Positions 602-36,320 of a DNA stretch of 39,056 nt are shown piece by piece. How positions within the stretch are numbered: position 1 is the stretch's first letter; each line of letters starts with the position of its first letter. The DNA comes from an uncultured Gemmatimonadaceae bacterium (GTDB lineage: Bacteria; Gemmatimonadota; Gemmatimonadetes; Longimicrobiales; RSA9): assembly GCA_964391035.1 (NCBI GenBank), contig CAYMLW010000004.1, positions 1 through 39,056 on the forward strand. The letters are read 5' to 3'. The translations under genes and the position numbers were made by a program. The notes beneath the pieces were generated by a model. It was given only the letters and a program-made list of their open reading frames with translations. It had not been told where the DNA came from and did not search any database.

Positions 602-2287
602 ATGCCTATCACGGGAGACGCCGTCCTCCGGCTCATGCGCAACCTCACCCTCGCCAAAGGGCGGTGGGCCGGCAAGCGTATGCCGGTGCAGCCGTTCCAG
701 GAGGAGCTGACCCGCGACGTGTTCTCCCTGCGCGAGGATGACCCGACGCGCCGCCAGTACCAGGAGGCGGTCATCTTCATGCCCCGTAAAAACGGCAAGA
801 GCACCCTCGTGGCCGCCTGGGCCCTGGCCCTGCTCATGGAGGAGCCGGGCGGTGAGGTGCTGGGCGTGGCCGCCAAGCGCGAGCAGGCCGCCATCCTGCT
901 CAACGCGGCCAAAGAGTTCGTCCGGGGCTCCAGCATCGGCGGCGTCCCGCTCTCGGACCACTTCACCGTGCGGCGCAACGCCATCATCTACCCCGAAATG
1001 GACGCCATCTACCGCGTCATCAGCTCGGACGCCAGCTCCGAGCACGGGGCCAACCCGCACGCCGTCGTGGCTGACGAGCTGCACGCCTGGCGCGACCCCG
1101 AGCTGCTCATCGCGATGACCACCGCGACCGCAGCTCGCGAAAACCCCCTGGTCATCCAAATCAGCACCCCCGGCGAGCGCCCGCAGGGCATCTGGTGGGA
1201 CCAGTGGAACCGGGTGCGCGACCTCCACGCTGGCCGCATCGAGGACCCCGAGCTGTTCGGGCGCATCTGGACCGGTACCGAGGGCTGCGACATCGCCGAT
1301 GAGGCCGAGTGGGAGAAATCGAACCCCGGCCTCGACGTCATCGTCAAGCGCGACTACCTCCGGCGCCAGGCCCGCACGGTCCCCGAGTACGCCTTCCGGC
1401 GCCTCCACCTCGGGCAGCCGACCACGGCGCACGAGCGCTGGCTCCCGCACCACCTGTGGGAGGAGAACGCCAAGCCGGTCGACATTCCCGAGGACGCCGA
1501 CGTCTACCTCGGCATCGACGCCGCGCTGAGCCGCGACACGTTCGCGCTCGCGGTGGTCTACCTCGACCAGGAGACCGACGAGGTGCACGCGCTGACCCGC
1601 GATTTCCGCCCCCCGCCAGGGCAGGCGTACATCGACCCGCAGGAGGTCCAGACCTACATTCTCGGGCTTGCGCAGCGCTACCGCATCCAGCGCGCCCTGT
1701 ACGACCCCGCGTACATGGGCCTGCTGGCCAGCTCGCTGGAGGACCGGGGCGTGCCCATCGAGCCGTTCCCGCAGAGCGCGATGAACATGGTCCGCGCGAC
1801 CGAGACGGTGCAGCGGCTCGTGTTCGACAAGCGCCTGCGGCACGGTGGCGACGTCGAGCTGGACGCGCAAATGGCGAACGTCCACGCGCGCCCGACCGAC
1901 CGTGGCGTGCGTATCAGTAAGGGCCGCTCCGGTGGCCCGGTCGACCGCGTGGTCGCGCTGGCGATGGCGGCCGATGGCTGTCTAAACGGCGAGCGCCCCG
2001 AGGGCCACTTCGCCTTCGCCGTGGACATCACCAAGCCCCGCGAGGAGGCCGAGGGCGAGGGCCGCAAGCGCGCCCCCAAGTCCGGACGGCCGAGGGGGCC
2101 CCGAGGGCCGATGGCCGAGCGCCGGGCGACCACCTACGCCAAGCGCAAGAGCGCCCAACGGCGAGCCGCTCTATTGCCTTCTAAGGCGTTGGCACCCCCC
2201 CTCGGTACGACCATAGCGGCCCCCTCCCCAAATCGCCGTAGACGAGCGCTAAGCCCCCTTAGCGTCCATTCTCACCACCGACTATAG
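602..2287 (+). CDS. terL: terminase large subunit
   Basis: Walker A MPRKNGKST, Walker B VVADELH, ISTPG, nuclease GIDAALSRD and DRVVALAMA. The basic C-terminal tail runs through repeat copy A. Confidence 0.97.
   Translation: MPITGDAVLRLMRNLTLAKGRWAGKRMPVQPFQEELTRDVFSLREDDPTRRQYQEAVIFMPRKNGKSTLVAAWALALLMEEPGGEVLGVAAKREQAAILLNAAKEFVRGSSIGGVPLSDHFTVRRNAIIYPEMDAIYRVISSDASSEHGANPHAVVADELHAWRDPELLIAMTTATAARENPLVIQISTPGERPQGIWWDQWNRVRDLHAGRIEDPELFGRIWTGTEGCDIADEAEWEKSNPGLDVIVKRDYLRRQARTVPEYAFRRLHLGQPTTAHERWLPHHLWEENAKPVDIPEDADVYLGIDAALSRDTFALAVVYLDQETDEVHALTRDFRPPPGQAYIDPQEVQTYILGLAQRYRIQRALYDPAYMGLLASSLEDRGVPIEPFPQSAMNMVRATETVQRLVFDKRLRHGGDVELDAQMANVHARPTDRGVRISKGRSGGPVDRVVALAMAADGCLNGERPEGHFAFAVDITKPREEAEGEGRKRAPKSGRPRGPRGPMAERRATTYAKRKSAQRRAALLPSKALAPPLGTTIAAPSPNRRRRALSPLSVHSHHRL
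2161..2265 (+). repeat. ~110-bp dispersed element, copy A
   Basis: GCGAGCCGCTCTATTGCCTTCTAAGGCGTTGGCACCCCCCCTCGGTACGACCATAGC...AAATCGCCGTAGACGAGCGCTAAGCCCCCTTAGCGT aligns with copies B-E. Confidence 0.9.
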
Positions 2288-2303
2288 CCCCGGAGCGAAC
2301 CCC

Positions 2304-2537
2304 ATGCTGACCACCCGCCGACACTGGCTCAAGCGCCAGGTGCTCACCCGCGTGCTCGTGCACACCTCCGACGGCTCGACCGTCGAGGGCATCCTCGACG
2401 TCGCCGCCCGCGACGGGCTCGTGCTGCGCTCCCCGAAGTTCCACGGCGACGAGCAGGAGCACTCGCTCAAGGGCACCGCCTACGTGCCCCGCGAGCAGGT
2501 CTCGTTCGTCCAGGTGCTCACCGAGGTGCCGGCGTGA
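2304..2537 (+). CDS. hypothetical small beta-rich protein (possibly Sm-like fold)
   Basis: GGAG RBS, typical codon usage, between terL and portal; pattern VLVHTSDGSTVEGIL...YVPREQVSFVQV. Confidence 0.75.
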   Translation: MLTTRRHWLKRQVLTRVLVHTSDGSTVEGILDVAARDGLVLRSPKFHGDEQEHSLKGTAYVPREQVSFVQVLTEVPA

Positions 2538-2626
2538 TTTGCGAGGCGTGCGGCGAGCTATTCGACCCGGTGGCGACCCGGTGGCTCTGCCCCCACTGCG
2601 GCTACAAGGCGCATTGCTGCGGGTGA
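2534..2626 (+). CDS. 30-aa Cys-rich zinc-finger microprotein
   Basis: GTGA overlap with the upstream stop, GAGG RBS; MICEACGELFDPVATRWLCPHCGYKAHCCG; below the ORF-track size cutoff. Confidence 0.7.
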   Translation: MICEACGELFDPVATRWLCPHCGYKAHCCG

Positions 2627-2654
2627 GGTCTAGCGGTTGGCGACACTCACCCCC

Positions 2655-4022
2655 ATGCGACTACTCACTGACGACGGCCCGGTCTCTGTCCGCTCCTCGT
2701 GGCCCCTCAAGGGGCTCGACCGCGAGCGCACCGAGGCGCAATCGTCCACGCGCGTCAAGCTCGTGGACAGCATCAACGGTGCCATCCGGCGCGCCAGCTA
2801 CGCGGACCTCTACCGGGGCAACCCGTGGGTCGAGGCCGCCGTCAGCCGCAACGCTGACTCCCTCGCCCGGCTCCCGCTCAAGGTCTACGAGCTGAACGGG
2901 GACGGCGACCGCGAGCGCGTCCGGGGCGACCTGCCGGTACAGGGGGCGCCGAGCGCCGCCGCGCAGCTCGACTCGATACTGCGCCGGCCGAACCGGGACC
3001 TGAGCGGCTTCCGGCTCCGGCACCTCGTGCACACCGACCTCGGCATCTACGGCAACGGGCTCATCGTCAAGGGGCGGGACGCGAAAAACCGCGTGGACGC
3101 CCTCTACCACGTCCCGTGGGCGCGCGTGTCGGTCATCCTCGGCAAGGACCGCCCCATCGTCGGTTTCGAGGTCCAGGGCACCGCCGGCCAGAAGCGGACC
3201 ATTCACCCCGAGGACGCCGTCCACTTCCGGCTCGGCAGCGACCCCGAGAGCGCCCTGGGCCTGTCCCCGCTGGAGCCGCTGGCTGACTCAGCCGGGCTCA
3301 TGGACGCCATCCGGCGCTTCACCCTGGCCTACTTCCGAAACCAGGCTCGGCCGAGCGGGAACCTCAAGCTCCCGCCGGGCGCCGACGAGCGCGTGCTGGA
3401 GTACGTGAAGGACCAGGTGTACGAAATGTACGCGAGCCCGGAGAACGCGGGCGTCCCGATGGTCACGACGGGCGACTGGCAGGCGCTCTCCGATGAGCCG
3501 CAGCACACCGAAGCCCTCAACCTCTACAAGCTCTCGCGCTCCGAGGTGGCCTCGGTCACCGGGGTCCCCGAGCCCCTGCTCGGCGCGCTCGACAAGGCCA
3601 CGCTAAGCAACGTCGAGGCGCTCAAGAGCTGGTACTACCGCGACGTCGTGGGCCCGCGCGCGGAGGGCTTCGAGGCCGACCTCGACACCTCCCTCCTGGC
3701 CCCGCACCCCTCGTGGCGCCGCCTCCTGGTCGAGCACGACCTCGGGGCGATGCTTAAGCCCGACCTCAAGGGCCGTGCTGAGGCGTACCGCTCCATGCGC
3801 TACGTCCACACCACGAACGAGCTGCGGCGCCTGGAGAACCTCCCACCCATCGGCGACGACCGCGCCGACACCGTGTGGCTGCCGGGCGCTGAGGTCCCCC
3901 TCATCGAGGAGACCTACCCCACTGAGCCGCAGGAGACCCCCGCCGACCCCGAGCCCAACCCCGAGGGCTCCAAGGGCCCCGGTGGCGACCCCGCCGACGA
4001 GCCCGACGCCGGCTACCTCTAG
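2655..4022 (+). CDS. portal protein (HK97 family)
   Basis: NPWVEAAV..A..LARLPL, RRPN, YGNG, GLSPL, FRNQARPSG, TTNELRRLENLPP motifs. Alternative TTG start at 2637. Confidence 0.95.
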   Translation: MRLLTDDGPVSVRSSWPLKGLDRERTEAQSSTRVKLVDSINGAIRRASYADLYRGNPWVEAAVSRNADSLARLPLKVYELNGDGDRERVRGDLPVQGAPSAAAQLDSILRRPNRDLSGFRLRHLVHTDLGIYGNGLIVKGRDAKNRVDALYHVPWARVSVILGKDRPIVGFEVQGTAGQKRTIHPEDAVHFRLGSDPESALGLSPLEPLADSAGLMDAIRRFTLAYFRNQARPSGNLKLPPGADERVLEYVKDQVYEMYASPENAGVPMVTTGDWQALSDEPQHTEALNLYKLSRSEVASVTGVPEPLLGALDKATLSNVEALKSWYYRDVVGPRAEGFEADLDTSLLAPHPSWRRLLVEHDLGAMLKPDLKGRAEAYRSMRYVHTTNELRRLENLPPIGDDRADTVWLPGAEVPLIEETYPTEPQETPADPEPNPEGSKGPGGDPADEPDAGYL

Positions 4023-4042
4023 CGACACCGGAGACTCCCCGC

Positions 4043-4696
4043 ATGGATACCAAGACACGCACCGCAACCCTGGCCGTTCGCGCCAAGAGCGACGACGAGC
4101 GCGAGGGCGTCATCGAGGCTTACGCCTCGGTGTTCGACACGCGCTACGACGTCGGCTACGCGCTGGAGCGCGTGGTCAAGGGCGCCTTCGAGGACTCCCT
4201 CGAAGCCCGCCCGACCCTGGCCATCTACCACGAGCACGGCTGGCGCCGGGGCGACGCCCCCATCGGCGTGGCCTCCGCGTGGGAGGACGACCACGGCCTC
4301 AAGGTCGAGGCCGAGCTGTTCCTCGATGACTCCAAGGCGAGGGCTGTTTACACGTCGGTCGAGCGCGGCGCGCTGACCGAGTGGAGCATCGGGTTCGTGG
4401 TGCGCGAGGAGGCCATCGTCACCGACGACGACGGGCTCGACGTGTTCGAGGTCCGGCGCGCGGACCTCCTGGAGGCGTCGACCACCATCCGGGGCTCCAA
4501 CCCGGACACCGAGACGGTCGGCGTCCGAGCGTCCGCCGTCTGCCCGGTGTGCGGAACCGCCACCGAGACCCGCGACGAGCGCGAGCACGTCGAAGAGCGC
4601 GACGACGAGGAGCCTGAGAAGCTCGCCCTGGTCGACGTCCTCGACCCCAACGACCCCGCCGAGCGGTGGCTGGAGAGCGTCCTCGGCGACGCCTAA
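4043..4696 (+). CDS. HK97-family prohead protease
   Basis: IEAYASVF, ERVVKGAF, YHEH, PIG, EDDHGL, WSIGF, LLEAS motifs; lies between portal and capsid. Confidence 0.95.
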   Translation: MDTKTRTATLAVRAKSDDEREGVIEAYASVFDTRYDVGYALERVVKGAFEDSLEARPTLAIYHEHGWRRGDAPIGVASAWEDDHGLKVEAELFLDDSKARAVYTSVERGALTEWSIGFVVREEAIVTDDDGLDVFEVRRADLLEASTTIRGSNPDTETVGVRASAVCPVCGTATETRDEREHVEERDDEEPEKLALVDVLDPNDPAERWLESVLGDA

Positions 4697-4795: not shown

Positions 4796-6097
4796 ATGTT
4801 GACCGAAACCGAGCTGGAGCGGCTCCGCAGCGAAGCCCGCTCCAAGGATGAGCGCGCCACTGAGCTGCGCTCCAAGGCCGAGCAGCAGGCCAAGGAGGCG
4901 CGGGATGAGGGCGTGGACCTCGCCAAGGACCCCGAAGCACGCCGCAAGGTGCTGGACGTCTACCGCGAGGCCGACAGCCTGGCACAGGAGGCTGCCGACC
5001 TGCGCGACGACTACACCGCGCTGCTGGAGCAGAACAGCGACGGCCAGGAGCGCCAGCGCTCCGAGGCCCCCAAGGTCGAGAGCCGGTCCCCCGGTGCGCG
5101 ACTGACCGCCACCGACGAGTTCGGCGCCTTCCACGGGCTCGCCAAGCGCGACCTCGGCGCAGCGGCCAAGGCCCTGGGCTCGGTCGAGGTGTTCACCCGC
5201 GACGAGACCCTGGGCGTCATCAGCGCCCGCGCAGTCGACGGCACCGCCCTGACGCAGCCTGACCGGCTCCCCGGCATCACCGACCCGCAGCCCGAGCGCC
5301 CGGTGCGTCTGTTCGACGTCATCATGGTCTCCGGGATGAACGACGGGAACCTGGAGTACGTGGCCGAGCTGGCGCGGACCGACAACGTCGGACCGGCGCC
5401 CTACGGCACCGAGCCCGAGCCCTCCGGCGACGAGAACCTGCTGGCCGAGTCCAGCTACGCCTTCGAGGAGCGCTCGGTGGCGGCCAAGAGGATTGGTCAC
5501 TACACCCCGGCCTCCGAGGCGCAGATTGCGGACGTCCCGCAGTTCCGCACCCTCGTGGACGCGCGGCTCGTCTCCGGCGTCAACCGCAAGCTGGAGGACT
5601 ACGCTCTCCAGGGCAACACCGGTGGCGGCGACCCGTGGGACGGCATCTACAACACGACCGGCGTGCTGACCCTCGACGGGACCGACGTCGACCGTGGCGA
5701 CGCCATCCACAAGGCGCTCACCAAGGTGCGCATCACGGCCTTCGAGGAGCCCGAGCTGCTGGCAATCCACCCGGAGGACTTCGAGGAGTACGCGCTGGAA
5801 AAGAACAGCAACGGTGACTACCTCCACGGGCGCGGGGCCGTCATCCCGAGCCTGGTGTGGGGCAAGCCCTACATGCTCTCCACCGCAGTGCCGAAGGGTT
5901 CGCCGCTCGTCGGACAGTTCTCCACCTCGGCGATGCTCGGCATCCGCGACGGCCTGGCCGTCAGCGCGACCGACACGCACTCCGACTGGTTCCTGCGAGG
6001 CTGGCTGGCCATCCGGGCACAGGTCCGCGCCGCGTTCGGTGTGGTCCGGCCGGTGACCTTCTGCATCGTGGAAAACTACGGCGCAACCACGCCGTAA
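4796..6097 (+). CDS. major capsid protein (HK97 fold, N-terminal coiled-coil delta domain)
   Basis: GGAGG RBS before ATG 4796; coiled-coil N-terminus; AIHPEDF..ALEKNSNGDYL, VWGKP, and C-terminal AIRAQVRAAFGVVRPVTF. Confidence 0.95.
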   Translation: MLTETELERLRSEARSKDERATELRSKAEQQAKEARDEGVDLAKDPEARRKVLDVYREADSLAQEAADLRDDYTALLEQNSDGQERQRSEAPKVESRSPGARLTATDEFGAFHGLAKRDLGAAAKALGSVEVFTRDETLGVISARAVDGTALTQPDRLPGITDPQPERPVRLFDVIMVSGMNDGNLEYVAELARTDNVGPAPYGTEPEPSGDENLLAESSYAFEERSVAAKRIGHYTPASEAQIADVPQFRTLVDARLVSGVNRKLEDYALQGNTGGGDPWDGIYNTTGVLTLDGTDVDRGDAIHKALTKVRITAFEEPELLAIHPEDFEEYALEKNSNGDYLHGRGAVIPSLVWGKPYMLSTAVPKGSPLVGQFSTSAMLGIRDGLAVSATDTHSDWFLRGWLAIRAQVRAAFGVVRPVTFCIVENYGATTP

Positions 6098-6197: not shown

Positions 6198-6566
6198 GTG
6201 CCAGAGCGCTTCCGAGCACCGCATCGCATCATCCGGGACGGCCGCCTTATCGCTGCCAAGGGCCACCTCATCAGCGACGCATTGGCCGAAGAGCTGGGTT
6301 TGGGCACCCCCTCTGAGAGCCCGTCAGAGCCCGCGAGAGCCGTTGACCCCCCCTCCGCGTATAATGGGAAGGGGGGTGCCGCTAAATCCCCACCTGACGC
6401 ATTGACCCTGGTCAGAGGGGGTGAAATCGACCCCTCCCCGTACCACGTCGGTGGACCCTGGTACGAAATCGAAGGCACCAAGGTTCGGGGAAAACAGGCC
6501 GCCATCGAAGTGCTCGAAGCACTAAATAAAACCACGACTCACGAGGAGCAAGTGAACAATGGCTGA
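6198..6566 (+). CDS. hypothetical protein (head-associated position)
   Basis: Fills the gap after the capsid gene and overlaps the next start; contains a degenerate copy of the dispersed element. Confidence 0.65.
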   Translation: MPERFRAPHRIIRDGRLIAAKGHLISDALAEELGLGTPSESPSEPARAVDPPSAYNGKGGAAKSPPDALTLVRGGEIDPSPYHVGGPWYEIEGTKVRGKQAAIEVLEALNKTTTHEEQVNNG

Positions 6567-7534: not shown

Positions 7535-8407
7535 ATGACCTACACCCTCGTGCAGGAAAAGGGGCACCACGACCCCGATAGCGGCACCGCGACATCCGAC
7601 CTCGTGCTGGACGCCCCGGTCCAGGCTGGCAACTTCCTCATCGCCGCAGTCGGGCACCGTGCGAGCAGCGCCGCCGCGACCCCCACCATCGGCAAGGATG
7701 GCGCCTCAATGGTGCAGCGCGTCATCGCGTCGACCACAAGCGACGGCGGCAACAAAGGTGTGGCTCTGTTCGACCTTCTGCCGGCGGTGGGCGGCGAGCA
7801 GACCTTCGAGACCCCGTACTATTGGCAGAGCTTGTGGGTCGCCGAGTTCTCCGGCACCACCCCCGATTGGGTCGATGGCGACTCAGGGCACAGCGGCTCA
7901 TCGAGCGTAACCTCGTTCGGGCTCCAGGCGACCTCGACGGGAACTGACTCCCTCGGCATCGCCTCGGCCTTCCACCGCGAGGGCGGCCTGAACGACGGCT
8001 CCAAGGGGTCGTTCGACTCTGGCTACGGCGTCAACGAAATCGCCTACAGGGGCTCCTATTACGGCCTGGAGCAGCACCTTGTCTCGTGGCAGTTCGACGT
8101 CAGTGGCGTGTCGAGCCCGGTGACCTGGACGCACGGCGACCCGCACCAGGTCGCAATGGTCCTCGGCCACTGGCAGGCCGCCGGCTACACCATCTCCGGC
8201 ACGGTCACCGAGGGCGGTAACCCCGTTAGCGGAGCGAAGGTCGCCGTCATTGCCGGGGGCGAGCTACAGAGCATCGAGACCACTGACGCCAACGGCGACT
8301 GGAGCGCCCTCGTGCCCTCCGGCCTCGCGGCGCACGCTTTCGCCTACCACGACGACGGTGTGGACCTCTACACCTCTGAGGGACGCCCGTACATCGAGGA
8401 GGCATGA
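7535..8407 (+). CDS. probable virion fibre/decoration protein with C-terminal beta-sandwich (carboxypeptidase-regulatory-like) domain
   Basis: C-terminal YTISGTVTEGGNPVSGAKV...TTDANGDW; Ser/Gly/Thr-rich; more A/T-ending codons than neighbouring genes. Confidence 0.7.
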   Translation: MTYTLVQEKGHHDPDSGTATSDLVLDAPVQAGNFLIAAVGHRASSAAATPTIGKDGASMVQRVIASTTSDGGNKGVALFDLLPAVGGEQTFETPYYWQSLWVAEFSGTTPDWVDGDSGHSGSSSVTSFGLQATSTGTDSLGIASAFHREGGLNDGSKGSFDSGYGVNEIAYRGSYYGLEQHLVSWQFDVSGVSSPVTWTHGDPHQVAMVLGHWQAAGYTISGTVTEGGNPVSGAKVAVIAGGELQSIETTDANGDWSALVPSGLAAHAFAYHDDGVDLYTSEGRPYIEEA

Positions 8408-9621
8408 GCTACACCCCTCCCTCACCGTCGGCGGTCGACTTCGAGCTGACCGCCTACACGCCGCCGGGCCCCTCGGCGGTCGATTTCTCACTGTCTGTCG
8501 AGCCGGTCATCGTCACCGCGCCGCGCCTGACGGTCTCGACGGCTCCCCGCGCCGGAGCCCTGGCCACCTCCCCGAGCCTGACCGCCACAAGGCTCTCAGC
8601 GCCCGCCAGCGCCCGCGTGGGCGGCTTCCGCGCCCCCGTAGGTGTGGTGGCACCGCGCCTGACCTCGACGTCGCAGACCCGCCCTGGCGCGCTCTCGGCG
8701 CCTCCGGCCCTGGCCACCCCGAAGCTCACCTCGACGTCGAGCGTGCGCCCCGGCGCCCTCTCGGCGCCCACCGCCCTGGCCGCTCCAAGGCTCACCTCGA
8801 CGTCGAGCCCGCGCCCCGGCCCCCTCAAGGCACCCTCGACCCTGCCGGCACCCCGGCTCGGCTCGACCGCTTCGGCGCGGAGCGCGACGCTTTCGGCCCC
8901 GAGGACCGTGACGGCTCCGCGCCTGGGCACGCAGTCCAGTGCGCGTCCGGGGGCGTTCTCCGCTCCGGCGACCGTGACGGCCCCCCGTGCACAGGCGAGC
9001 GCAACCGCGCAACCAGCAACCATCGAGGCGGTTGGCTCGGCTACCGCCCCGCGCCTGACCGCCCCCGCCACCGTGCGCCCCGGTGCCCTCACCGTCGAGG
9101 CGAGCTTCACCGCTCCGCGCCTCGCCGTGCAGGCCACGGCGCAGCCGGCGCGCGCGACCACCCCACGCTCGGTCCAGGGCGTGCGCCCTGGCGCCACCTC
9201 GACCGTGCGCCCCGGCACCGTCACCACCCCCCGTACCGTCGAGGCGCCCCGCCTCGGCTCGACCGCCACCGTGCAGCCCGCCGGTTTCTCGGTCTCGGGC
9301 TCGGCCACAGCTCAGCGCCTGGCCCTGGCTGCCACCGTGCGCCCCGGCGCCCTGGCCCCCGAGGTGGTCATCGAGGCTGAGCGCATCGTCGCGGGCGCAG
9401 CCACACGCCTGGCCACGCTCTCGCACCCCCTTACGGTGAGCCACGAGCCGCTGACGGCGACCGCCACCGAGCGCGTCGGGACCCTGTTCGTGGACCGCGT
9501 GCTGGTCCCCGAACGCACCCGCGTGACCCTCACTGCCTCCGGCCTTCGAGGTGAAATCGACGGCGGCAGCGGCGGCAGCCGCACAACGCTCACCGCCCCC
9601 TCCAGGAGGATGCACGCATGA
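8404..9621 (+). CDS. Ala/Thr/Pro-rich repetitive fibre-like protein
   Basis: ATGA overlap; N-terminal YTPPxPSAVDFxL twice; many ~21-aa repeats of the type APRLTSTSxxRPGALSAP. Confidence 0.75.
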   Translation: MSYTPPSPSAVDFELTAYTPPGPSAVDFSLSVEPVIVTAPRLTVSTAPRAGALATSPSLTATRLSAPASARVGGFRAPVGVVAPRLTSTSQTRPGALSAPPALATPKLTSTSSVRPGALSAPTALAAPRLTSTSSPRPGPLKAPSTLPAPRLGSTASARSATLSAPRTVTAPRLGTQSSARPGAFSAPATVTAPRAQASATAQPATIEAVGSATAPRLTAPATVRPGALTVEASFTAPRLAVQATAQPARATTPRSVQGVRPGATSTVRPGTVTTPRTVEAPRLGSTATVQPAGFSVSGSATAQRLALAATVRPGALAPEVVIEAERIVAGAATRLATLSHPLTVSHEPLTATATERVGTLFVDRVLVPERTRVTLTASGLRGEIDGGSGGSRTTLTAPSRRMHA

Positions 9622-21838: not shown

Positions 21839-21869
21839 AGGGTAGGGGGGTGTTTACACTGTTTGTCAA
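21839..21869 (-). promoter_or_regulatory. candidate sigma70/SigA-type promoter
   Basis: TTGACA-N19-TACCCT upstream of the SprT-like gene; the spacer contains GTGTAAACAC. Confidence 0.45.
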
Positions 21870-21881
21870 GTCGAGGGTGTG

Positions 21882-22334
21882 TTATCGGCAATCGGGACAG
21901 TGCTTCGGCTTCCGGCCGCGCACGCGCTTGCGGGTGAACGTCCCACCGCACGCCTGGCACGTCAGCTCCTCGTGCCCCTCGGGCAGCTCCACCTCGGGGC
22001 GCTCCTGCCGTGGCGCCGGCAGCGCCTCGCCTTCGGCATCGGCCACGAGGTCGCCCCACCGCTGGTGCGCCGTCGTGGCGCCCTTGGGCAAGGCCCCCTT
22101 CCCGGTGCGCGCGCAGCTCGACGGGGTAGCGTAGGCGTGCTTCCCCTTGTGCTGGCCCGTGCGCCCCACGAGCATGAGGTCGACCTTCCCCGAGGCCCGC
22201 CGCAGCGTCTCGCGAAAGGTGTAGCGCCCGGAGCGCCCCTCGACCTTCACCTCATCGCCGGCCGTGAGCACCTTGCCGGTGCCGGAGCGGTACTCGTCGC
22301 GGACCTCGACCACGGGGTCGGGCTGAATGAACAT
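21882..22334 (-). CDS. hypothetical protein with C-terminal zinc ribbon
   Basis: AGGAGG RBS before ATG 22334; LTCQACGGTF...GRKPKHCPDCR. Confidence 0.75.
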   Translation of the reverse strand: MFIQPDPVVEVRDEYRSGTGKVLTAGDEVKVEGRSGRYTFRETLRRASGKVDLMLVGRTGQHKGKHAYATPSSCARTGKGALPKGATTAHQRWGDLVADAEGEALPAPRQERPEVELPEGHEELTCQACGGTFTRKRVRGRKPKHCPDCR

Positions 22335-22412
22335 TTGCGCCTCCTGGTGGTGAGAAATACTAGCCGGGTGTACCGTGCCTTCACCCCGATTTGCAATCTT
22401 GAGGAGCACCCG

Positions 22413-22643
22413 ATGACAAAGGCCGAACGCATCGAAGCGGTCATCGCGGCGCACGCCCGAGCTACGTCGACCCGCAGGGTGGCCGACCACGCCAGCGAGG
22501 TGGTCAAGCGCGAAATCGCGCAGGCCCTCGACAGCGGCGTGCTCGCCCCCGAGCTGGCCACCGAGCTTGGGCTGAGCGTCGTGCGCATCTATCAGCTCGC
22601 CCGCCAGGGCCGCGCCCTACTCGAAGCCGAGGAGCGAGAATGA
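22413..22643 (+). CDS. small helix-turn-helix DNA-binding protein
   Basis: GAGGAG RBS; GVLAPELATELGLSVVRIYQL HTH pattern. Confidence 0.8.
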   Translation: MTKAERIEAVIAAHARATSTRRVADHASEVVKREIAQALDSGVLAPELATELGLSVVRIYQLARQGRALLEAEERE

Positions 22644-22915
22644 CCACGCCGACCATCGCCCCGAACCCGACCTACGCCCCGCCGAAGGTGCCTGAGCGCA
22701 CTCGCCACCCCGACCGCACCCGCGACCGGGACCGGCTCGTGCACATCGTGGACGACCGCGACAAGGTCCGCGAGGCCATGCACTACGGCTTCCCCGTCAA
22801 GGCCCTGTGCGGCAAGCGGTGGGTCCCACGGCGGTGGAAGCCGCGCGGCGGCCTGCGCTGCCAGGTGTGCGCCGACATCGCCCGGCAGCGGTACCCCGTG
22901 GGCCCCGGAGAGTGA
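22640..22915 (+). CDS. DUF3039-like zinc-binding protein
   Basis: HIV...KV.EA...G.PV.ALCGK.WVP...CQVC pattern of the actinobacterial DUF3039 family, recalled rather than searched. Confidence 0.8.
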   Translation: MTTPTIAPNPTYAPPKVPERTRHPDRTRDRDRLVHIVDDRDKVREAMHYGFPVKALCGKRWVPRRWKPRGGLRCQVCADIARQRYPVGPGE

Positions 22916-22970
22916 CCAAATGACCTACCTTGCAACCGCCCAGGCCGTGTCAAGGTTGCCAAGTTGGTCG
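22913..22970. other. candidate attP of the serine integrase
   Basis: 58-bp imperfect inverted repeat (19 of 28 positions symmetric) around an asymmetric central CA at 22941-22942, abutting the integrase stop between convergent genes. Confidence 0.7.
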
Positions 22971-24428
22971 TCAATCCACCGCCAGCGCAGCGTGACGCGC
23001 TCTCGAAGGGGTGTGGCGCGGGCCGCGCCCCTTCGATTTCGCCACCTCGACCCGCTCCAGGAAATAGAGGGCGATGGTTCGGCGCTCCCTGGTGGTCAGT
23101 CCCGCCCACCGCTCGGGCAGGTCGTCGGCGAGGGTGCCGGGACGCTCGTGCAGTGGCGCCCGGAGGGCTTCGAGCTGGCCGAGCGCAGCGTCGAGTCGGC
23201 CCTGCGCGCGCTCGATGGCCTGGCGCCAAGAGGCCAGGGCGTCGGGGCCCTCGTAGAGCCCGTCCAGACGCTCCTCGTGGAGCTGCGCGATGAGGTCGCG
23301 GTACCGCCCCACCTCGGCCTCCACCTCGCGCGCGCGCTCGCTGGCGTCGCTCTCGATGGCCAGCTTGGCGGCGAGCCGGGGCTCGATGTCGGTGAGGATG
23401 GCCTCCCCCACGTAGGCGTCGAGCCCGCCCATGCGCACCGCTGAGCCGGGGCACTCCCCCGCACGCTTCTGGCACACGTAGCTCTGCGCCTGCGCCGACC
23501 GCATCGCGGTCATCGGGCCACCGCACTCCCCGCACCGCACGAGCCCCGCGAGCATGGACTCGTTCTGGCTGCGGCGCACGCCCCCGGTGCGGCGCCCTCG
23601 ACGGTCCAGTTCCTCGATGAGCGCGCGCCACCGCTCGGGGGCGAGCACGGGCTCGTCGGCGACCGTCACCGGCAGGCCGTCCTCATCGCGCACGAGGTCG
23701 TGGTGCTCCTGGCCGTGGGGGCGGTGGCTGCGGTAGCCGGCGAGGACCGGCTTGCGCAGGAGCTTCGAGAGGTTGGCCTGCTGCCACTCGCGCCCGGTGC
23801 GGGTCCGCTCTCCGCGCTCGTTCCAGGAGGTCAGCACGGCGCGCGTGGACTCCCCCGCCAGGACCCGGTCGGCCAGCTCGCGCAGGAGGGCTGCCTCGAC
23901 GGGCTCGATGGCCAGCCGCTTGTGCCCCTCGACCTCGATGAGCCGGTACCCGTAAGGCGCCTGGCCCCCGGTCCAGAAGCCACCCCGCCGAAGGTGCGCC
24001 TGCGCGCTCGACACTCGCGTGGACGTGTTCGCGCTCTCCTGCTCGGCCTGCGCCGCGACGAACCCCGCGATGGCCTGGCCAATCGGGGTCGAGGTGTCCA
24101 GCGACTCGCTCGTGGAGACCAGCTCGACGTCGGCCTCGCTGAGCCGGCCCATGAGCCCCACGAGGTCGGTGAACCGACGGTAGAGGCGGTCGAGGCGCCA
24201 GACCACGAGGACATCGTAGGCGTCGAGGCTGGCGAGCATCCGCTCATAGGCCGGGCGCGTGACGCCGCGCTGATAGCCGCTGAGGTCCGAGTCCACGTAG
24301 AGGTCGTCGGCCTCGACAAACGAAAGCCCCCGAGCCTCGATGGCCCGGAGGCACTCGTTCCGCTGCCGCTCGACCGAGGTGCTGGCCTCGGTCTCGCGAC
24401 TGAGCCGAACGTAGGCGGCGGCGCGCAC
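22971..24428 (-). CDS. int: large serine recombinase (integrase)
   Basis: YVRLS catalytic motif, SVERQ, DLSG...RP, WRLDRL, PYGY recombinase domain, LAGLVRCGECG...YVC...C zinc ribbon, coiled coil. Confidence 0.97.
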   Translation of the reverse strand: MRAAAYVRLSRETEASTSVERQRNECLRAIEARGLSFVEADDLYVDSDLSGYQRGVTRPAYERMLASLDAYDVLVVWRLDRLYRRFTDLVGLMGRLSEADVELVSTSESLDTSTPIGQAIAGFVAAQAEQESANTSTRVSSAQAHLRRGGFWTGGQAPYGYRLIEVEGHKRLAIEPVEAALLRELADRVLAGESTRAVLTSWNERGERTRTGREWQQANLSKLLRKPVLAGYRSHRPHGQEHHDLVRDEDGLPVTVADEPVLAPERWRALIEELDRRGRRTGGVRRSQNESMLAGLVRCGECGGPMTAMRSAQAQSYVCQKRAGECPGSAVRMGGLDAYVGEAILTDIEPRLAAKLAIESDASERAREVEAEVGRYRDLIAQLHEERLDGLYEGPDALASWRQAIERAQGRLDAALGQLEALRAPLHERPGTLADDLPERWAGLTTRERRTIALYFLERVEVAKSKGRGPRHTPSRARHAALAVD

Positions 24429-24429
24429 G

Positions 24430-24600
24430 TCAGGCCGCCGCGACGATGTTTACACGGTCCGAGGAGAACGGCTTGCCGCGCTGGCCCTTGGTCACCTCGA
24501 TACGGTCGATGGTCCCTCGCGCCAGGGCGCGCCACTCATCCTCGGTGAGCCGGGTCCACGGGAGCTTCCCGCTCCGGGCGCGCTCCAGGACGACGGGCAA
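24430..24600 (-). CDS. 56-aa protein resembling the C-terminal segment of a large serine integrase
   Basis: GGAGA RBS then TTG at 24600; stop 1 nt before the integrase GTG; WTRLTEDEWRALARGTIDRIEVTKGQRGKPFSSDRVNIVAAA. Confidence 0.6.
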   Translation of the reverse strand: MPVVLERARSGKLPWTRLTEDEWRALARGTIDRIEVTKGQRGKPFSSDRVNIVAAA

Positions 24601-28572: not shown

Positions 28573-29070
28573 ATGCTGCTCTGCCCCACCACGCCCAAGG
28601 GGCTGCTCCCCTTGGCCATCCGCGCCGCCCTCGACGTCGGCATCGACCACGACGAGGCCGTGAGCGCCGCGAACCTGGCCGTCACCGAGGTCTGCCGACG
28701 CTACCCCGAGGAGTCCCGCTCGTGGGTCATCCGTGAGGCTGCCAAGCGTCGAGCCATCGACTACTGGCGCAGCGCGAGAGGACGCGAGGGCCAGAAGCCG
28801 CGCCCGGATTTCCTGGAGGACCACGTCTACAGCGAGCCCTCCCACGACCCCACCACAGACGTCGTCGACCGCCTGGCGGCGCAGCAGGAGGCGCGCCTGC
28901 TCCTGGAGCAGCTCGACGAGCGCGAGCGCTTCATCGTCACCCGCCTGGCCGACGGCTGGACCTTGCGCGAGGTCGGCGAGCACATCGGCATTAGCGAGGC
29001 CGGAGTGTCCCATGCGCGCAAGCGCATCCGCACGCGCCTGGAGCCGCTGAGAGCCGCTCTAAGCGCCTGA
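28573..29070 (+). CDS. sigma-70 family (ECF-like) sigma factor
   Basis: AIDYWR region 2; LEQLDERERFIV...GWTLREVGEHIGISEAGVS region 4 HTH. Confidence 0.85.
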   Translation: MLLCPTTPKGLLPLAIRAALDVGIDHDEAVSAANLAVTEVCRRYPEESRSWVIREAAKRRAIDYWRSARGREGQKPRPDFLEDHVYSEPSHDPTTDVVDRLAAQQEARLLLEQLDERERFIVTRLADGWTLREVGEHIGISEAGVSHARKRIRTRLEPLRAALSA

Positions 29071-29095
29071 CCCCCACCCCCCTTACGACCCTACC
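29041..29095 (+). repeat. partial (left-arm) copy of the dispersed element
   Basis: GAGCCGCTGAGAGCCGCTCTAAG is identical to the start of copy B, followed by a C-run and TACGACC. Confidence 0.7.
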
Positions 29096-29117
29096 GAGAC
29101 CCCACACAGGAGCAAAC

Positions 29118-31016
29118 GTGAGCCACCAGGACGCCTCTCCGAGCCTTCTAGAAGCCGCGCTGAGCTACGCCGACAACGGCGTGCCAGTGTTCCCGCTGAC
29201 CCCCGAGGGCAAGCGCCCGCTGGTCGAGCACGGGCTGCACGAGGCCACCACCGACGCCGACCAAATCGAGCGGTGGTGGACCGACTACCCCAACGCGAAC
29301 ATCGGGATGCCGACTGGAGCCCCGAGCGGCATGGTCGTCATCGACATCGACCCCGAGGGCATCGAGCTGGCCCGCGAGCTGCGCGACGACGGCAGGCTGC
29401 CACCGACCTGGGCGGTCAGGACCCCGCGCGGCGAGCACCTCTACTACCACGCCCCCGAGGAGCGCATCAAAAACGGCGTGGGTGAGCGCGGCGGCCTCGG
29501 CAAGGGCATCGATGTGCGCGGCGACGGCGGCTACGTCGTGGTCCCGCCCTCGACCGACGGCCAGGGGGGCACCTACGAGCGCCGAGGCGGCCCCCACGTC
29601 GAGCCCCTGCCAGGGTGGGTCGCGGACCTGCGCTCCGACCGGCGCACCGACGCCTCTCGCCTGGAGCGCCTGCGCGGCAAGGCGCGCACCAACGCGCCCG
29701 TCGAGCCCCATCCGCTCCCGGAGAGCGAGCACCCGGTCGGCACTCGCAAGGGCCTGCGCAAGCTCGCGGTCGAGGCCGCGCTCCTGGCGAACGAGGGCGA
29801 GGGCTCCCGCAACCACCGTCTAAACGAGGTGGCCTTCATCCTCGGCGGCTACCTCAAGGCCGGGCACCTCGACCTCGACTACCTCGTGGAGGTCATCCTC
29901 GCGGCGGCCGAGGAGAACGGCATGGTGGACGACGATGGGATTGGCCAGGTGGAGGCCACCCTGGAGAGCGGCCTGACCGCCGGGGAGGCCGAGCCCATCC
30001 CTGACGCCGCCACCGAGGCCGATTGGGTGGTGCCGGGCAAGGCTTACGCCACGCCCAAGCTGCTCTACACCCTCGACGACCTCGCCAACCTCCCGCCCAT
30101 CGAGTTCCTCATCGACGGCATCCTGCCGGCGCGCTCGCTGAGCGTGGTGTTCGGCCCGAGCGGCACGTACAAGAGCTTCCTGGTGCTCGATTGGGCGCTG
30201 TCCATCACCTCGGGGCGCCCGTGGGCTGGCCACCAGACCGAGAAAGGCAACGTCGTCTACGTCGCGGCCGAGGGTGCCTCGGGCATCCGCAAGCGCGCGA
30301 CCGCCTGGCTCGAAGCCAACCCCGGCTACGACCCGAGCGACCGCCTGCGCGTGGTCCCGCGCGCGGTCAACCTGCTCGACCCCGACAGCGCCTACGAGCT
30401 GCGCTCGGCGCTGCGCGAGGAGCTGGCCGAGAGCCCGTCGCTCATCGTGGTCGACACCTTCGCCCGGTCCATCACCGGGGGCGATGAGAACAGCGCCACC
30501 GACGTGGGCGTGGTCGTGGACGTGGTCGATGCCATCCGGCACGAGCACGGCTCGACCGTGCTGCTCGTGCACCACTCCGGGCGCCAGGGGGGCCACGAGC
30601 GTGGCTCCACCGCGCTCGAAGGGGCGATGGACGCGCGGTACGAAATGAGCGCGTCACAGGACACCCTCCAGGCCACGCTCAAGTGCCGGAAAATGAAGGA
30701 CCGAGAGGAGCCCAAGCCGGTCCACCTCAAGCTCCGCGAGCTGGGGCCGTCGCTCGTGGTCGAGCCCGGCCTGCTCGACGAGGAGGCCCGCAAACAGCTC
30801 GTGGCCGAGACTATCGAGGGGCTGCTCGACGCGCACCCCGAGGGCATCGGGTTCGGGTTCCTCGTGCGCGAGCTGCCGCTGGCCCCGCAGGACGCGCAGC
30901 GCGCCATCACCGAGGCCGAACTGGACCCAACGTGCCCGGTCGTGACGACGCGCCCGGACGGCTACAAAGACGACCTCTACACCGTCGTCGGCGACTTGCA
31001 CGAGCACGCCGCGTAG
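29118..31016 (+). CDS. bifunctional DNA primase/polymerase fused to a RepA-like (AAA_25) helicase
   Basis: PVFPL...KRP, ANIG..TG, VIDID, TPRGEHLYY, GIDVRGDGGYVVVPPS; Walker A GPSGTYKS, YVAAEG, IVVDT, DENS, VHHSG, RGSTAL. Confidence 0.95.
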   Translation: MSHQDASPSLLEAALSYADNGVPVFPLTPEGKRPLVEHGLHEATTDADQIERWWTDYPNANIGMPTGAPSGMVVIDIDPEGIELARELRDDGRLPPTWAVRTPRGEHLYYHAPEERIKNGVGERGGLGKGIDVRGDGGYVVVPPSTDGQGGTYERRGGPHVEPLPGWVADLRSDRRTDASRLERLRGKARTNAPVEPHPLPESEHPVGTRKGLRKLAVEAALLANEGEGSRNHRLNEVAFILGGYLKAGHLDLDYLVEVILAAAEENGMVDDDGIGQVEATLESGLTAGEAEPIPDAATEADWVVPGKAYATPKLLYTLDDLANLPPIEFLIDGILPARSLSVVFGPSGTYKSFLVLDWALSITSGRPWAGHQTEKGNVVYVAAEGASGIRKRATAWLEANPGYDPSDRLRVVPRAVNLLDPDSAYELRSALREELAESPSLIVVDTFARSITGGDENSATDVGVVVDVVDAIRHEHGSTVLLVHHSGRQGGHERGSTALEGAMDARYEMSASQDTLQATLKCRKMKDREEPKPVHLKLRELGPSLVVEPGLLDEEARKQLVAETIEGLLDAHPEGIGFGFLVRELPLAPQDAQRAITEAELDPTCPVVTTRPDGYKDDLYTVVGDLHEHAA

Positions 31017-31435: not shown

Positions 31436-31971
31436 GCACTAAGGCCGCGCAGCGCGACGCCCGGAGCGAGGTCGTCCAGACCTCCCGCACCAAGGGCGAG
31501 CGCATCACCCTATTTCTCTCCCCCAAAGGCCGGGTGTGGTGGACCGACACGTTCACCGCCCGCCCCGCCCCCGAGGAGCTGACCGAGCAGCTCGAAGGCT
31601 TCGAGCTGCCGGCGACCATCGACATCAAGGTGGGGCGCCTGACCGCCCCCCACCCCGCCGACAGTGCCCACCCTAAGCCGGGCGCCATCGCGCAGGCCAC
31701 CGAGCTGGTCATCCGGCGCGCACTCAAGCGCGCCAAGCCGGTCCGGCCGACCGGCGAGCGTTTCGACAACGGCGCCGGCACCGAGGTGGTCGAGCTGCGC
31801 GGGGAGCCGGGCCGCGTGCTCCTCGATGAGCGCGACGCCGACCTACTCAACGCCAACCGACTCCTGGTCGAGGACCGCGAGCGCAAACCGCGCCCGGTGC
31901 TGGCCAGGAGCGACGACGGCATCGAGGGCGTCGCGATGGGCGTCCTCGAAGCCGAGAAGGAGCAATCGTGA
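31432..31971 (+). CDS. hypothetical protein
   Basis: GGAGGAG RBS, typical codon usage. Confidence 0.75.
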   Translation: MSTKAAQRDARSEVVQTSRTKGERITLFLSPKGRVWWTDTFTARPAPEELTEQLEGFELPATIDIKVGRLTAPHPADSAHPKPGAIAQATELVIRRALKRAKPVRPTGERFDNGAGTEVVELRGEPGRVLLDERDADLLNANRLLVEDRERKPRPVLARSDDGIEGVAMGVLEAEKEQS

Positions 31972-32219: not shown

Positions 32220-32310
32220 GCGCGCGTTCACACACCCTCGCATTTGCGTTACTGCATGAACACCCCCTACACAAAGAGTGCACGCCAACCCCCTACCGAC
32301 AGGAGACACC

Positions 32311-32826
32311 ATGACAAACGCAACCGAACAGCAGCAGGCCCCGACCGCCCCGGACCCCGCGCCCAAGCGGCGCAAGTGGCCGTGGGTCGTCGCCGCACTG
32401 TTCGTCATCGGCGCCATCGGCAACATCGCCGAGGACCCCGAGACCCCCGAGCCCGAGCCCACCGCCGTCGAGCAGGAGGCCGAGCCCGAGCCCGAGGTCG
32501 ACCCTGAGCCCGAGAGCCCGAGCCAACCCACCGAGTCCGAGCCCGAGGAGGGCGGCGACCTGGAGTGGGCGCGCCAGGAGCTTGCGTGGGCTGGCCAGGA
32601 CATCGCCGACGGCGACTATGACATCGCCCGCGACTCCCTAGAGTTCGCCCGCGCCTCAGCCGAGGACGCGCCCGAGGGGCCCGAGCGGACCGCCATCCTG
32701 GAGCTGGTCGACACGACGCTCGACGCCCTCGACGCCCTGGAGGAGTGCCAGGCAGGCGACCTCGAAGCGTGCGACACCTCCGACGAGCTGTTCGTGGAGG
32801 CCGGCGAAGCCCTCGACAACCTCTAA
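32311..32826 (+). CDS. membrane-anchored acidic protein (possible superinfection exclusion or lipoprotein-like role)
   Basis: AGGAG RBS; KRRKWPW plus a transmembrane helix, EP-rich linker, helical acidic domain with two Cys; own promoter candidate TTGCGT-N18-TACACA at 32244-32273. Confidence 0.75.
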   Translation: MTNATEQQQAPTAPDPAPKRRKWPWVVAALFVIGAIGNIAEDPETPEPEPTAVEQEAEPEPEVDPEPESPSQPTESEPEEGGDLEWARQELAWAGQDIADGDYDIARDSLEFARASAEDAPEGPERTAILELVDTTLDALDALEECQAGDLEACDTSDELFVEAGEALDNL

Positions 32827-34700: not shown

Positions 34701-34727
34701 GCCCCCGCCATCCTCGGCGGGGGCTTT
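34701..34727 (+). terminator. intrinsic terminator
   Basis: GCCCCCGCC-ATCCTC-GGCGGGGGC-TTT. Confidence 0.7.
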
Positions 34728-34737
34728 GCTATGCCGC

Positions 34738-34847
34738 CAGCTTCCACGCTAAGGGGGCTTAGCGCTCGTCTACGGCGATTTCCCCTACCCCCGCTATGAC
34801 CGTACCAAGGGGGGTGTCAACGCCTTAGAACGGCTCTCAGCGGCTCG
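34738..34847 (-). repeat. ~110-bp dispersed element, copy D
   Basis: Reverse complement CGAGCCGCTGAGAGCCGTTCTAAGGCGTTGACACCCCCCTTGGTACGGTCATAGCGGGGGT...AAATCGCCGTAGACGAGCGCTAAGCCCCCTTAGCGTGGAAGCTG. Confidence 0.9.
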
Positions 34848-34909
34848 AAGGGCCGTATGCGCGATGAGCGCGCGCGCAGCGAGACTGCGCGTGCGCTCTC
34901 ACCCCCCGA

Positions 34910-34938
34910 TTGGACAACCGTAAAACACCCCATACCAT
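34910..34938 (+). promoter_or_regulatory. candidate promoter for the small-gene cassette
   Basis: TTGGAC-N17-TACCAT in an AT-richer gap, followed by an A-rich leader. Confidence 0.5.
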
Positions 34939-35096
34939 AGGTATTGCAAGGTTGAGAGAGGCAAGACAGAGCGGACCGCCCGAGAGCCGACAGGGAACCG
35001 ACCCCATCGGGAACAAAAATACATAGCGGGACTACCAAGAGAAACCAAGATTTCCGATTTGCCCACCATCCGATTTCACACCCACCAGGAGCCACC

Positions 35097-35207
35097 ATGA
35101 CACTCGCCACCTTCATCCACGAAATCCGGGAAGCCTTCCACGAGGCAATCCTCGATGACCAGGCCCGCTGCCTGGTCGAGGATGAGCGGGCTGGCCTCAC
35201 CTTCTGA
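35097..35207 (+). CDS. 36-aa hypothetical protein
   Basis: AGGAGCCACC-ATG start; MTLATFIHEIREAFHEAILDDQARCLVEDERAGLTF. Confidence 0.65.
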   Translation: MTLATFIHEIREAFHEAILDDQARCLVEDERAGLTF

Positions 35208-35628: not shown

Positions 35629-35675
35629 TCTCACCATCGCTCCGGCCTTCGAGCCGGGGCCCGACAGGAGCCACC

Positions 35676-35880
35676 ATGACAACCCCCGACGAAATCCGCG
35701 AGAGCCTTCGACAGCGACCTCACCGAGGCGGCTGAGCTGGCCGGCGACCTCACCTGCACGCTGGGCGAAGCGGAGGCCATCGCCACCGACCTGGCCAGGC
35801 TGCTGGGCGCCCTCGCTCAGGAGCAGGGCATCACCCTGAACGCGAGCCAGCGCGAGGCGTTTGACAGCGCCGCGCTCTGA
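35676..35880 (+). pseudogene. small gene with an apparent +1 frameshift near 35703
   Basis: AGGAGCCACC-ATG start MTTPDEIRE; skipping one base gives 58 well-biased codons (AFDSDL...DSAAL) ending just before the next RBS. Confidence 0.6.
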
Positions 35881-35900
35881 GCCCCACGAGAGGAGCCACC

Positions 35901-36125
35901 ATGCCAACCGTTACCGCCACCCGCCTGCTCGATGAGCCGAGCGTCCCCTCGACGGTCTACCGCTTCGAGGGCGAGACGCCGGCCGGCACGGTCACCTTCG
36001 CGGTCGACCACCGGCCAGCGGCCGAGCTGCTCGCCGCCATCGAGGATGGCGAGGAGCCCGAGGTCCAGGTCCCCTCCTGGGCCATCCTCGGCTTCGAGCA
36101 CGCCCACCCTCAGCTCGACCTCTAA
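35901..36125 (+). CDS. hypothetical protein
   Basis: AGGAGCCACC-ATG start; VTFAVDHRPA...VPSWAI. Confidence 0.75.
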   Translation: MPTVTATRLLDEPSVPSTVYRFEGETPAGTVTFAVDHRPAAELLAAIEDGEEPEVQVPSWAILGFEHAHPQLDL

Positions 36126-36135
36126 TCACACCATC

Positions 36136-36162
36136 GGCCCCCGCTTCTGGCGGGGGCCTTTT
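36136..36162 (+). terminator. intrinsic terminator
   Basis: GGCCCCCGC-TTCTG-GCGGGGGCC-TTTT. Confidence 0.8.
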
Positions 36163-36206
36163 CGTGTTTCGGGGGCCACGGAACGGGGGTGGTTCTGGAA
36201 CGGTGC

Positions 36207-36320
36207 GCGAGCCGCTCTATTGCGTTCTAAGCGGCGCGACCCCCCCTCGGGTAGTACCATAGCGGGGGTCACCCTATCTCCCCGCAGACGAGCGCTAAGC
36301 CCCCTTAGCGTGGAAGCTAG
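36207..36320 (+). repeat. ~110-bp dispersed element, copy E
   Basis: GCGAGCCGCTCTATTGCGTTCTAAGCGGCGCGACCCCCCCTCGGGTAGTACCATAGCGGGGGT...AGACGAGCGCTAAGCCCCCTTAGCGTGGAAGCTAG. Confidence 0.9.

Follow-up and report, generated by a model that had tools for sequence, protein, structure and literature searches.

A dispersed repeat of about 110 bp with a three-helix consensus fold at gene ends in a temperate phage from an uncultured Gemmatimonadaceae bacterium

The stretch of DNA analysed here, referred to below as the window, is the entire contig CAYMLW010000004.1 (39,056 nt; GenBank assembly GCA_964391035.1), one of 627 in the assembly of an uncultured Gemmatimonadaceae bacterium, and it reads as a complete HK97-type temperate phage, siphovirus-type and of ~70% G+C base composition. 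Dispersed through it, from the end of the large terminase gene to the early region, is a repeat of about 110 bp. An original prediction made from the letters alone had described five full copies in both orientations, a lone left arm and a diverged look-alike, and had taken them for strong gyrase or DNA-wrapping sites or, failing that, for a recombination or packaging element. Here we describe the copies, their positions, their fold and their mosaic make-up, and weigh what such a repeat might do.

Seven copies at gene ends

The five full copies lie at the places and in the orientations originally described and were recovered alike by a repeat finder, by nhmmer (E 1e-32 to 3e-28 for copies A-E) and by a covariance model (115-125 bits). 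The left arm reported at 29041 is a real half copy (20.8 bits with a sequence-only model, E 1e-5 in the window, model positions 3-60), and the look-alike at about 6310-6400 proved to be a diverged sixth full-length copy, whose score the structure terms of the model lift from 11.0 bits (E 0.013 by sequence alone) to 21.7 bits (E 4e-5), such model E-values being rough by the search tool's own account. The copies are as follows.

Copy A, 2161-2272, plus strand: full copy, within the last 42 codons of the large terminase open reading frame (ORF)
Copy B, 19925-20038, plus strand: full copy, before the dNMP kinase gene
Copy C, 20630-20742, minus strand: full copy, between convergent genes
Copy D, 34735-34847, minus strand: full copy, between a terminator and an A+T-richer promoter-like region (34900-35096)
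Copy E, 36208-36321, plus strand: full copy, with a terminator on one side and, on the other, 350 nt of non-coding DNA leading up to the gene at 36675
Copy F, 29041-29098, plus strand: half copy, left arm and core, without the hairpins
Copy G, 6315-6430, plus strand: diverged full-length copy

A further, core-only look-alike at 34972-35035 (CATAGCGGG, 75 nt before ATG 35097) was dropped, as it was missed by both models, with and without structure.

All seven copies are located at gene ends. The earlier view that the element is tolerated inside coding sequence stands only for the extreme 3' ends of ORFs and not elsewhere: copy A lies within the last 42 codons of the large terminase, copy F provides the gene for an ECF-like sigma protein with its final 10 codons and its stop (29068-29070), and copy B supplies the last 3-4 codons of the gene before it. 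In all, four copies give a neighbouring gene its last codons or stop. Downstream of copy A come TCTCACCACC, a GGAG ribosome site and ATG 2304, and the terminase tail that runs over it has no counterpart among the phage-collection matches listed, which end at residues 458-475. The 104-nt gap ahead of the dNMP kinase gene is filled exactly by copy B, which also contains the TGA of the upstream gene ending at 19935; the kinase gene has its ribosome site in GGAAG at 20029-20033, 6 nt ahead of ATG 20040. An extension of copy C to 20616, common to copy E, covers the kinase stop codon, while the left end of copy C abuts the terminator of the leftward operon. Copy F stands 20 nt before the PrimPol-helicase start at 29118, and copy G lies 218 nt past the major capsid stop (6097), behind a G+C hairpin. 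Of the four terminator-like sites that score highest in 19.1-39 kb, three touch copies C, D and E, a co-location to which we would assign, as a rough estimate, p = 0.05, given that both features are confined to intergenic DNA. The three sites are these.

20739-20762, minus strand: terminator-like hairpin of 9 G-C pairs, immediately upstream of copy C and on its strand, belonging to the leftward operon
34701-34724, plus strand: terminator-like hairpin with T-run, after the gene ending at 34686 and 10 nt from copy D
36136-36158, plus strand: terminator-like hairpin with T-run, after the gene ending at 36125 and 49 nt upstream of copy E

The element had also been called independent of orientation, and both orientations do occur, but six of the seven copies are co-oriented with incoming transcription. 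Two inverted pairs are formed, B/C around the dNMP kinase gene and D/E around a 1.36-kb block of four small genes; since direct close pairs would delete the DNA between them, the survival of inverted pairs may explain why two copies are reversed. As a separate observation, a ribosome-site and start context (CAGGAGCCACCATGAC) stands ahead of four small early genes (32295-32341, 35081-35127, 35660-35706 and 35885-35931); three of these contexts lie in the D-E block, and they bring to mind the start-associated sequences known from Cluster K mycobacteriophages.

Placement of this kind could also suggest a composite promoter(-operator) cassette, which is the main rival to the interpretation we develop below and appears strikingly similar in architecture to the promoter-early stem-loops (PeSLs) of T4-type phages. 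Such a cassette would combine a core promoter, perhaps for the phage's ECF-like sigma protein, with the palindrome GCGCTAAG-N4-CTTAGCGT as operator and GGAAG as ribosome site; we consider it unlikely, although several observations speak for it. Copies come after terminators, as terminator-promoter units would, a sigma-like protein is among the phage's products, and CATAGCGG does not vary among the five full copies, two of which (B and D) carry TTGACA and CATAGC 17 nt apart. With these boxes at 19952-19957 and 19975-19980 and its ribosome site, copy B would be a complete expression unit for the kinase gene. Early promoters of phiC31 are also known to carry conserved inverted repeats. PeSLs likewise join promoter, G/C stem-loop and Shine-Dalgarno site over ~100 bp and mediate shuffling (PMC2839356). 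Yet the CATAGC box, read as a -10 element, is without T at position 6, copies C and E carry GCGACC instead of TTGACA, none of the copies is called as a promoter in a scan with a sigma-70-type consensus, and for two of them there is nothing to drive. Nor does the sigma protein have a homologue to suggest its promoter motif (none at E 1e-5 in a word-indexed protein search). An ECF-type -35/-10 arrangement starting from GGAAGC was sought by eye, with no consistent partner box.

A fold kept across divergent copies

The consensus fold comprises three helices. The left arm pairs with the right arm over 10 pairs (helix 1), a C-run and a G-run form a hairpin of 8 pairs around a conserved 16-nt loop, GGTAnnACCATAGC (helix 2), and GCGCTAAG-CCCC-CTTAGCGT forms a second hairpin, again of 8 pairs, with a C-rich loop (helix 3). 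The C-run/G-run hairpin is present in copies B, C, D, E and G and absent from A and F because these two are without the G-run, copy A having a C-run in its place. Pairing holds in 91.5% of the 130 cells of the five close copies, against 35-47% when the partners are slid. With copy G added, 89% are paired and seven pairs are changed on both sides, as compared to 1.9 +/- 1.2 on shuffling (1/500) and 0-2 on sliding, although these counts come from an alignment that was fitted by the model and is thus biased towards structure. Folded alone, copy G forms the same two consecutive hairpins out of different letters, with an energy that is ordinary (z -0.55). Wobble cells number 14 for G-U and two for A-C, an excess that speaks mildly for a forward-read RNA. 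Covarying stems had been named in advance as evidence that would speak against a function at the DNA level, and they are seen in part, as stems kept through changes on both sides.

The 20-bp palindrome of the right arm, GCGCTAAG-N4-CTTAGCGT, bears on the promoter-operator reading. It occurs only in the copies (the 12 matches comprise 10 from the five copies, counted on both strands, and two from a single 3-mismatch site at 31436-31455), and copy G keeps the second hairpin in a different sequence, contrary to what would be expected of a sequence-specific operator. Known RNA families offered no precedent: Rfam 15 gave no match at gathering score across the window and none to described RNA families, and at E up to 10 there were only chance-level matches near the copies, the best of them P9 at E 0.8. 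The window contains no tRNA or tmRNA.

That the repeat is instead a protein site on duplex or cruciform DNA, be it a strong gyrase site, a REP/BIME-like site or an architectural or wrapping site, seems to us improbable. The ~110 bp size, the two orientations, the three CTAAG/CTTAG half-sites, and the location of copies at operon ends, including the convergent junction at copy C where supercoils accumulate, would all be consistent with it, as would A/T islands every 9.5-10 bp. E. coli BIME-2 repeats at operon ends bind gyrase. Of the helical phasing originally described, however, only a part is borne out, in that a power peak is found at 9.5-10 (3.3-9.5) whereas power at 10.5 is 0.0-1.3 in all copies. 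Even this periodicity is marginal, with per-copy shuffle p-values of 0.03-0.075 that are not independent tests because the copies are related. The proposal of a strong gyrase or DNA-wrapping site in particular is left unsupported by the missing 10.5 bp power, by the exact blocks common to the copies and by the base-paired fold, as gyrase sites are degenerate and need neither common sequence nor paired stems. Against any DNA-level site stand the stems kept through both-side changes and the preference for G-U over A-C, which duplex DNA would not be expected to show.

Mosaic copies, related phages and the surrounding genome

Divergence along the repeat is very uneven. Overall, pairs of full copies are identical at 76-99 of 111 columns, but the hairpin loop (GGTA..CATAGCGG) is nearly fixed, with CATAGCGG unchanged in all five, as is the right arm (27-34 of 35 positions identical in every pair of full copies), whereas the stretch after the G-run varies freely (2-9 of 12). 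A composite motif consisting of CATAGCGG, 18-28 nt, GAGCGCTAAGCC, 2 nt and CTTAG is found in all five copies and in none of 100 shuffles. The divergence of copy E at the AAATCGCC block, pointed out originally, is confirmed in the alignment. The left half falls into two subtypes, B/D and C/E, which agree at 14 of 26 positions between subtypes and at 24 of 26 within them, and copy A is a mosaic of the two: its columns 3-19 are of subtype 2 (16 of 17 identical with E) and its columns 20-45 of subtype 1 (23 of 26 identical with B and D).

Full copies end in GGAAGCT at the 3' side; copy A instead ends in a motif of the type TCTCACCAYC. This 10-nt motif, with one mismatch allowed, has 21 sites in the window where 4.6 are expected, 19 of them on the plus strand (for example at 25913, 28022, 28502, 31022, 34053, 35629 and 36126). 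Ten of the 19 begin 1-40 nt past a plus-strand stop codon, often as TAA-TCnCACCATC, and these stop-linked sites stand ahead of a hairpin or of the next ribosome site.

The portal protein has relatives of 79% and 77% identity. One of these related phages encodes a terminase (P0058; 82% identical, 561 aa) whose C-terminal tail, like that of the window's phage, runs through a repeat copy in the position of copy A; the RAA, SK, TTIA and NR blocks are retained. The left arm of this copy gives RAAES in translation (subtype 1), that of copy A RAALL (subtype 2). The codons of the relative's copy are G-rich before the loop (G-V-G-A) and C-rich after it (A-P-P-T), the reverse of copies B-E, and since all six determined positions are complementary, a T-A pair included, the hairpin has apparently been kept with its arms swapped relative to B-E, insofar as a swap can be read from protein and not from DNA. 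About 21 nt of the second hairpin are apparently missing from this copy. An orthologous copy in this relative implies that the repeat family is older than the split of these phages. The terminase of a second relative (P0057; 665 aa) is 81% identical over residues 1-478, with the basic tail common to both, and its ORF then runs into an unrelated P-loop NTPase-like domain (GPPGAGKST) where the phage in the window has copy A, so that the start of copy A approximates the point at which this ORF departs from the other two. A relationship between that P-loop domain and the kinase encoded between copies B and C was considered and rejected; the two are unrelated.

The mosaic copies, the position of copy A at the terminase divergence point and the inverted pairs together fit the recombination element that had been offered as a fallback better than they fit gyrase. 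Could similarity then be kept only by gene conversion, in a duplicated junction sequence with no function at all? We give this little credence. Mosaic copies do show exchange between copies, and both copy A, with no G-run, and its orthologue, with apparently half of the second hairpin gone, are degenerate. But copy G is too diverged for conversion and has the fold nonetheless, the family is older than the separation from a phage whose terminase is 82% identical, and divergence along the element is, as described above, very uneven. Moreover, a second dispersed repeat pair is found in none of 94 portal-relative loci, an indication that families of this kind are not easily formed.

Searches beyond the window found no other home for the repeat. 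By nhmmer, copies are present on one of the assembly's 627 contigs, this one; the phage collection holds no DNA match; exact-motif scans of viral, metagenome and genome contigs gave no copy; viral contigs scanned with the terminase or the kinase protein alone gave nothing; 72 family genomes yielded one 32-nt chance match (E 0.005); and a profile of the repeat's translation against 1.84 billion representative proteins returned only two matches, both low-complexity. The search of phage and host genomes originally suggested thus leaves the repeat confined to this contig among everything searched. The 94 loci from portal-profile scans (no more than 42% identity) include none that matched the element model and none with a multi-copy repeat family, and PrimPol relatives in 400 genomes of the order reach at most 46% identity, over part of the protein. 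Of the four sequencing runs listed, none is recorded as RNA. Contigs built from the reads are short and break at the repeats, and no joint, which might have revealed inversion isomers, was found at an element.

This distribution also bears on whether the repeat is a non-autonomous mobile element, a miniature inverted-repeat transposable element (MITE) or a palindrome-associated one, inserted at gene ends, which we regard as very improbable. It would account for several copies in both orientations at gene ends, for the two subtypes and for the four copies that supply a neighbouring gene's last codons or stop. However, as had been stated originally, the repeat has no terminal inverted repeats (the first 20 nt match the reverse complement of the last 20 nt at 6-8 positions in each of the five copies), and no transposase was found in the 50 of ~59 ORFs scanned. 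Target-site duplications are likewise missing, the best direct repeats at the borders being 3-5 nt against a random mean of 4.4 nt, with none of the five copies exceeding the null; the left end has no conserved target; and there is no copy on the other 626 contigs, in the 72 family genomes or in the sequence collections. An integron attC site was rejected too. Such imperfect palindromes, found at the 3' ends of cassettes, go with an IntI tyrosine recombinase and an attI array; here the only recombinase found is a large serine integrase, and the copies are dispersed, not arrayed.

The genes around the repeat are given below as a rough map of ~59 ORFs, the family scans having covered 50 of these. 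The nearest phages in the annotated collection are phiC31-like, with terminase identity of ~30%.

140-598: small terminase
602-2287: large terminase
2655-4022: portal
4043-4696: prohead protease
4796-6097: major capsid
Between major capsid and amidase in the gene listing: tail tube and tape measure
18668-19420: amidase
20040-20621, plus strand: dNMP kinase gene (PF21448, E 4.5e-15), with inverted copies B and C on either side
20778 to 24600: leftward gene block, including the large serine integrase at 22971-24428
28573-29070: ECF-like sigma protein gene (Sigma70_r4_2, E 3.6e-6; PHROG sigma factor, E 1e-8)
Rightward early genes: exonuclease, RusA, ECF-like sigma, PrimPol-helicase (29118-31016), WhiB (36944-37273) and HNH nuclease (38226-38483)

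Several other features of this genome deserve mention. An ORF of 405 aa at 8404-9621 is made of 66-nt and 132-nt tandem repeats, has no Pfam match and may encode a repetitive head-decoration or tail protein, and the gene at 17661-18308 contains three tandem 42-nt repeats (17666-17791). The short non-coding stretch 22916-22970 adjoining the serine integrase gene carries an inverted repeat, CCTTGCAAC ... GTCAAGGTTGCCAAG, and is a candidate attP. A small Cys-pair-rich ORF at 2534-2628 (CEACGELF...LCPHCGYKAHCCG), with a gene ending at 2537 on one side and the portal gene on the other, looks, by eye, like a zinc-ribbon mini-protein.

Proposed function and comparison with known systems

The reading that these observations support best, and which we put forward tentatively, is that the repeat is a phage-specific, structured module marking boundaries, which works at the level of the transcript and at the same time serves as a linker for recombination. 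It draws on the fold kept across divergence, the conserved loop, the placement at unit boundaries, the ribosome site used once and the mosaic copies. The repeat would act mainly on the transcript, read in the forward orientation, its hairpins at the end of a gene or operon attenuating read-through and protecting RNA ends. A phage or host factor might recognise the conserved loop, and the 3' GGAAG would serve as a ribosome site where a gene follows. Copies could in addition be crossover points for the exchange of neighbouring genes, because of the ~110 bp of homology common to them. A nut-like boxA (AAATCG, resembling part of the rrn leader of related genomes) was considered and dropped, as it has 40 occurrences in the window, mostly as Glu-Ile codons; the assembly contains no 16S gene.

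Several points weigh against this proposal, beyond the model-fitted alignment and the protein-based arm swap already noted. In the five close copies only two of the 26 pairs are changed on both sides, which 38 of 500 shuffles reach, and fold energies are unremarkable for the G+C content (z -1.1 to -2.6 forward, -0.5 to -2.9 reverse). Copy-specific covariation between arms was not seen on swapping arms among copies: own arms fold at -20.5 kcal/mol, no better than arms from another copy at -19.5 kcal/mol. The hairpins are without U-tracts, and three copies have real terminators beside them, where the repeat itself need not terminate transcription. Loop and right arm show conservation of sequence, a pattern that a DNA-binding site would explain equally well. 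Finally, a start codon lies behind GGAAG in just one of the five full copies (B; not in C, D or E), and copy D is the sole copy pointing against local transcription.

It is tempting to go further and imagine that the hairpin with the conserved loop docks a dedicated phage factor, the two forming a new control system that sets read-through at each unit boundary, and that the modules move or flip whole cassettes, such as the dNMP kinase gene or the 1.36-kb block of small genes, by folded-strand or homology-driven exchange. This more elaborate scheme is a long shot; if true, it would amount to an attC/REP-like cassette system in a tailed phage without a tyrosine integrase or RAYT. On the simpler proposal of boundary modules, the repeat would be a compact natural insulator part, and if the modules instead bind a dedicated factor, they would make up a new regulatory circuit in phages. 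Small phage genomes rarely hold long and folded repeats in multiple copies, and there is no such family in the 94 portal-relative loci. Modules that insulate transcription units and at the same time mark exchange points would give the modular evolution of temperate phages with high G+C content a concrete mechanism.

How does the repeat compare with what is known? The extragenic REP/BIME repeats of enterobacteria, like the repeat here, are imperfect palindromes at gene 3' ends in both orientations; their reported effects are a greater stability of the mRNA upstream, attenuation of transcription and gyrase binding. They differ in being 20-40 nt long, in having hundreds of chromosomal copies and in being spread by RAYT, whereas the repeat described here is ~110 nt, is found in the phage only and has no RAYT. 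The strong gyrase site of phage Mu is similar in size (~100-150 bp) and also lies in a phage genome, but it is a single, central site defined through cleavage by gyrase, in contrast to a multi-copy family with paired stems and no 10.5-bp signal.

Cluster O mycobacteriophages carry 17-bp dyad repeats, described in a paper whose discussion also mentions the Cluster K start-associated sequences, and these too are unexplained, dispersed through a phage genome and in many cases intergenic (PMC4351075). As described there, however, they are 13-17 bp long, occur in more than 30 copies and are interpreted as protein sites on duplex DNA, while the repeat here is seven times longer and folded.

The repeat also resembles the PeSL cassettes of T4-type phages, which are dispersed intergenic motifs and crossover points (PMC2839356, PMC4122927). 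Both are dispersed, conserved intergenic elements of ~100 bp with a G/C-tract stem-loop, and both flank small accessory genes. The 3' Shine-Dalgarno site of the PeSLs has its counterpart, with the start codon of the next gene behind it, in one of the five full copies here (B), and a role as crossover points is in our case presumptive. Unlike PeSLs, which precede the gene that they drive, the repeat is without a recognisable sigma-70 promoter and occurs in both orientations; it has a three-helix fold with a conserved loop, in 6-7 copies, and resides in a 70% G+C temperate siphovirus-type phage. No mini-circles or exchange products have been observed here, and exchange is suggested instead by the mosaic subtypes and the terminase divergence. 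No PeSL-like linker in high-G+C temperate phages turned up in the literature searched on such repeats. Dispersed regulatory or structured intergenic repeats are a known kind of phage element, with none of which (PeSL, Cluster O, REP/BIME or Mu) the repeat has sequence in common. It is longer and more elaborately folded than the actinophage repeats compared here, and it mixes features of several kinds.

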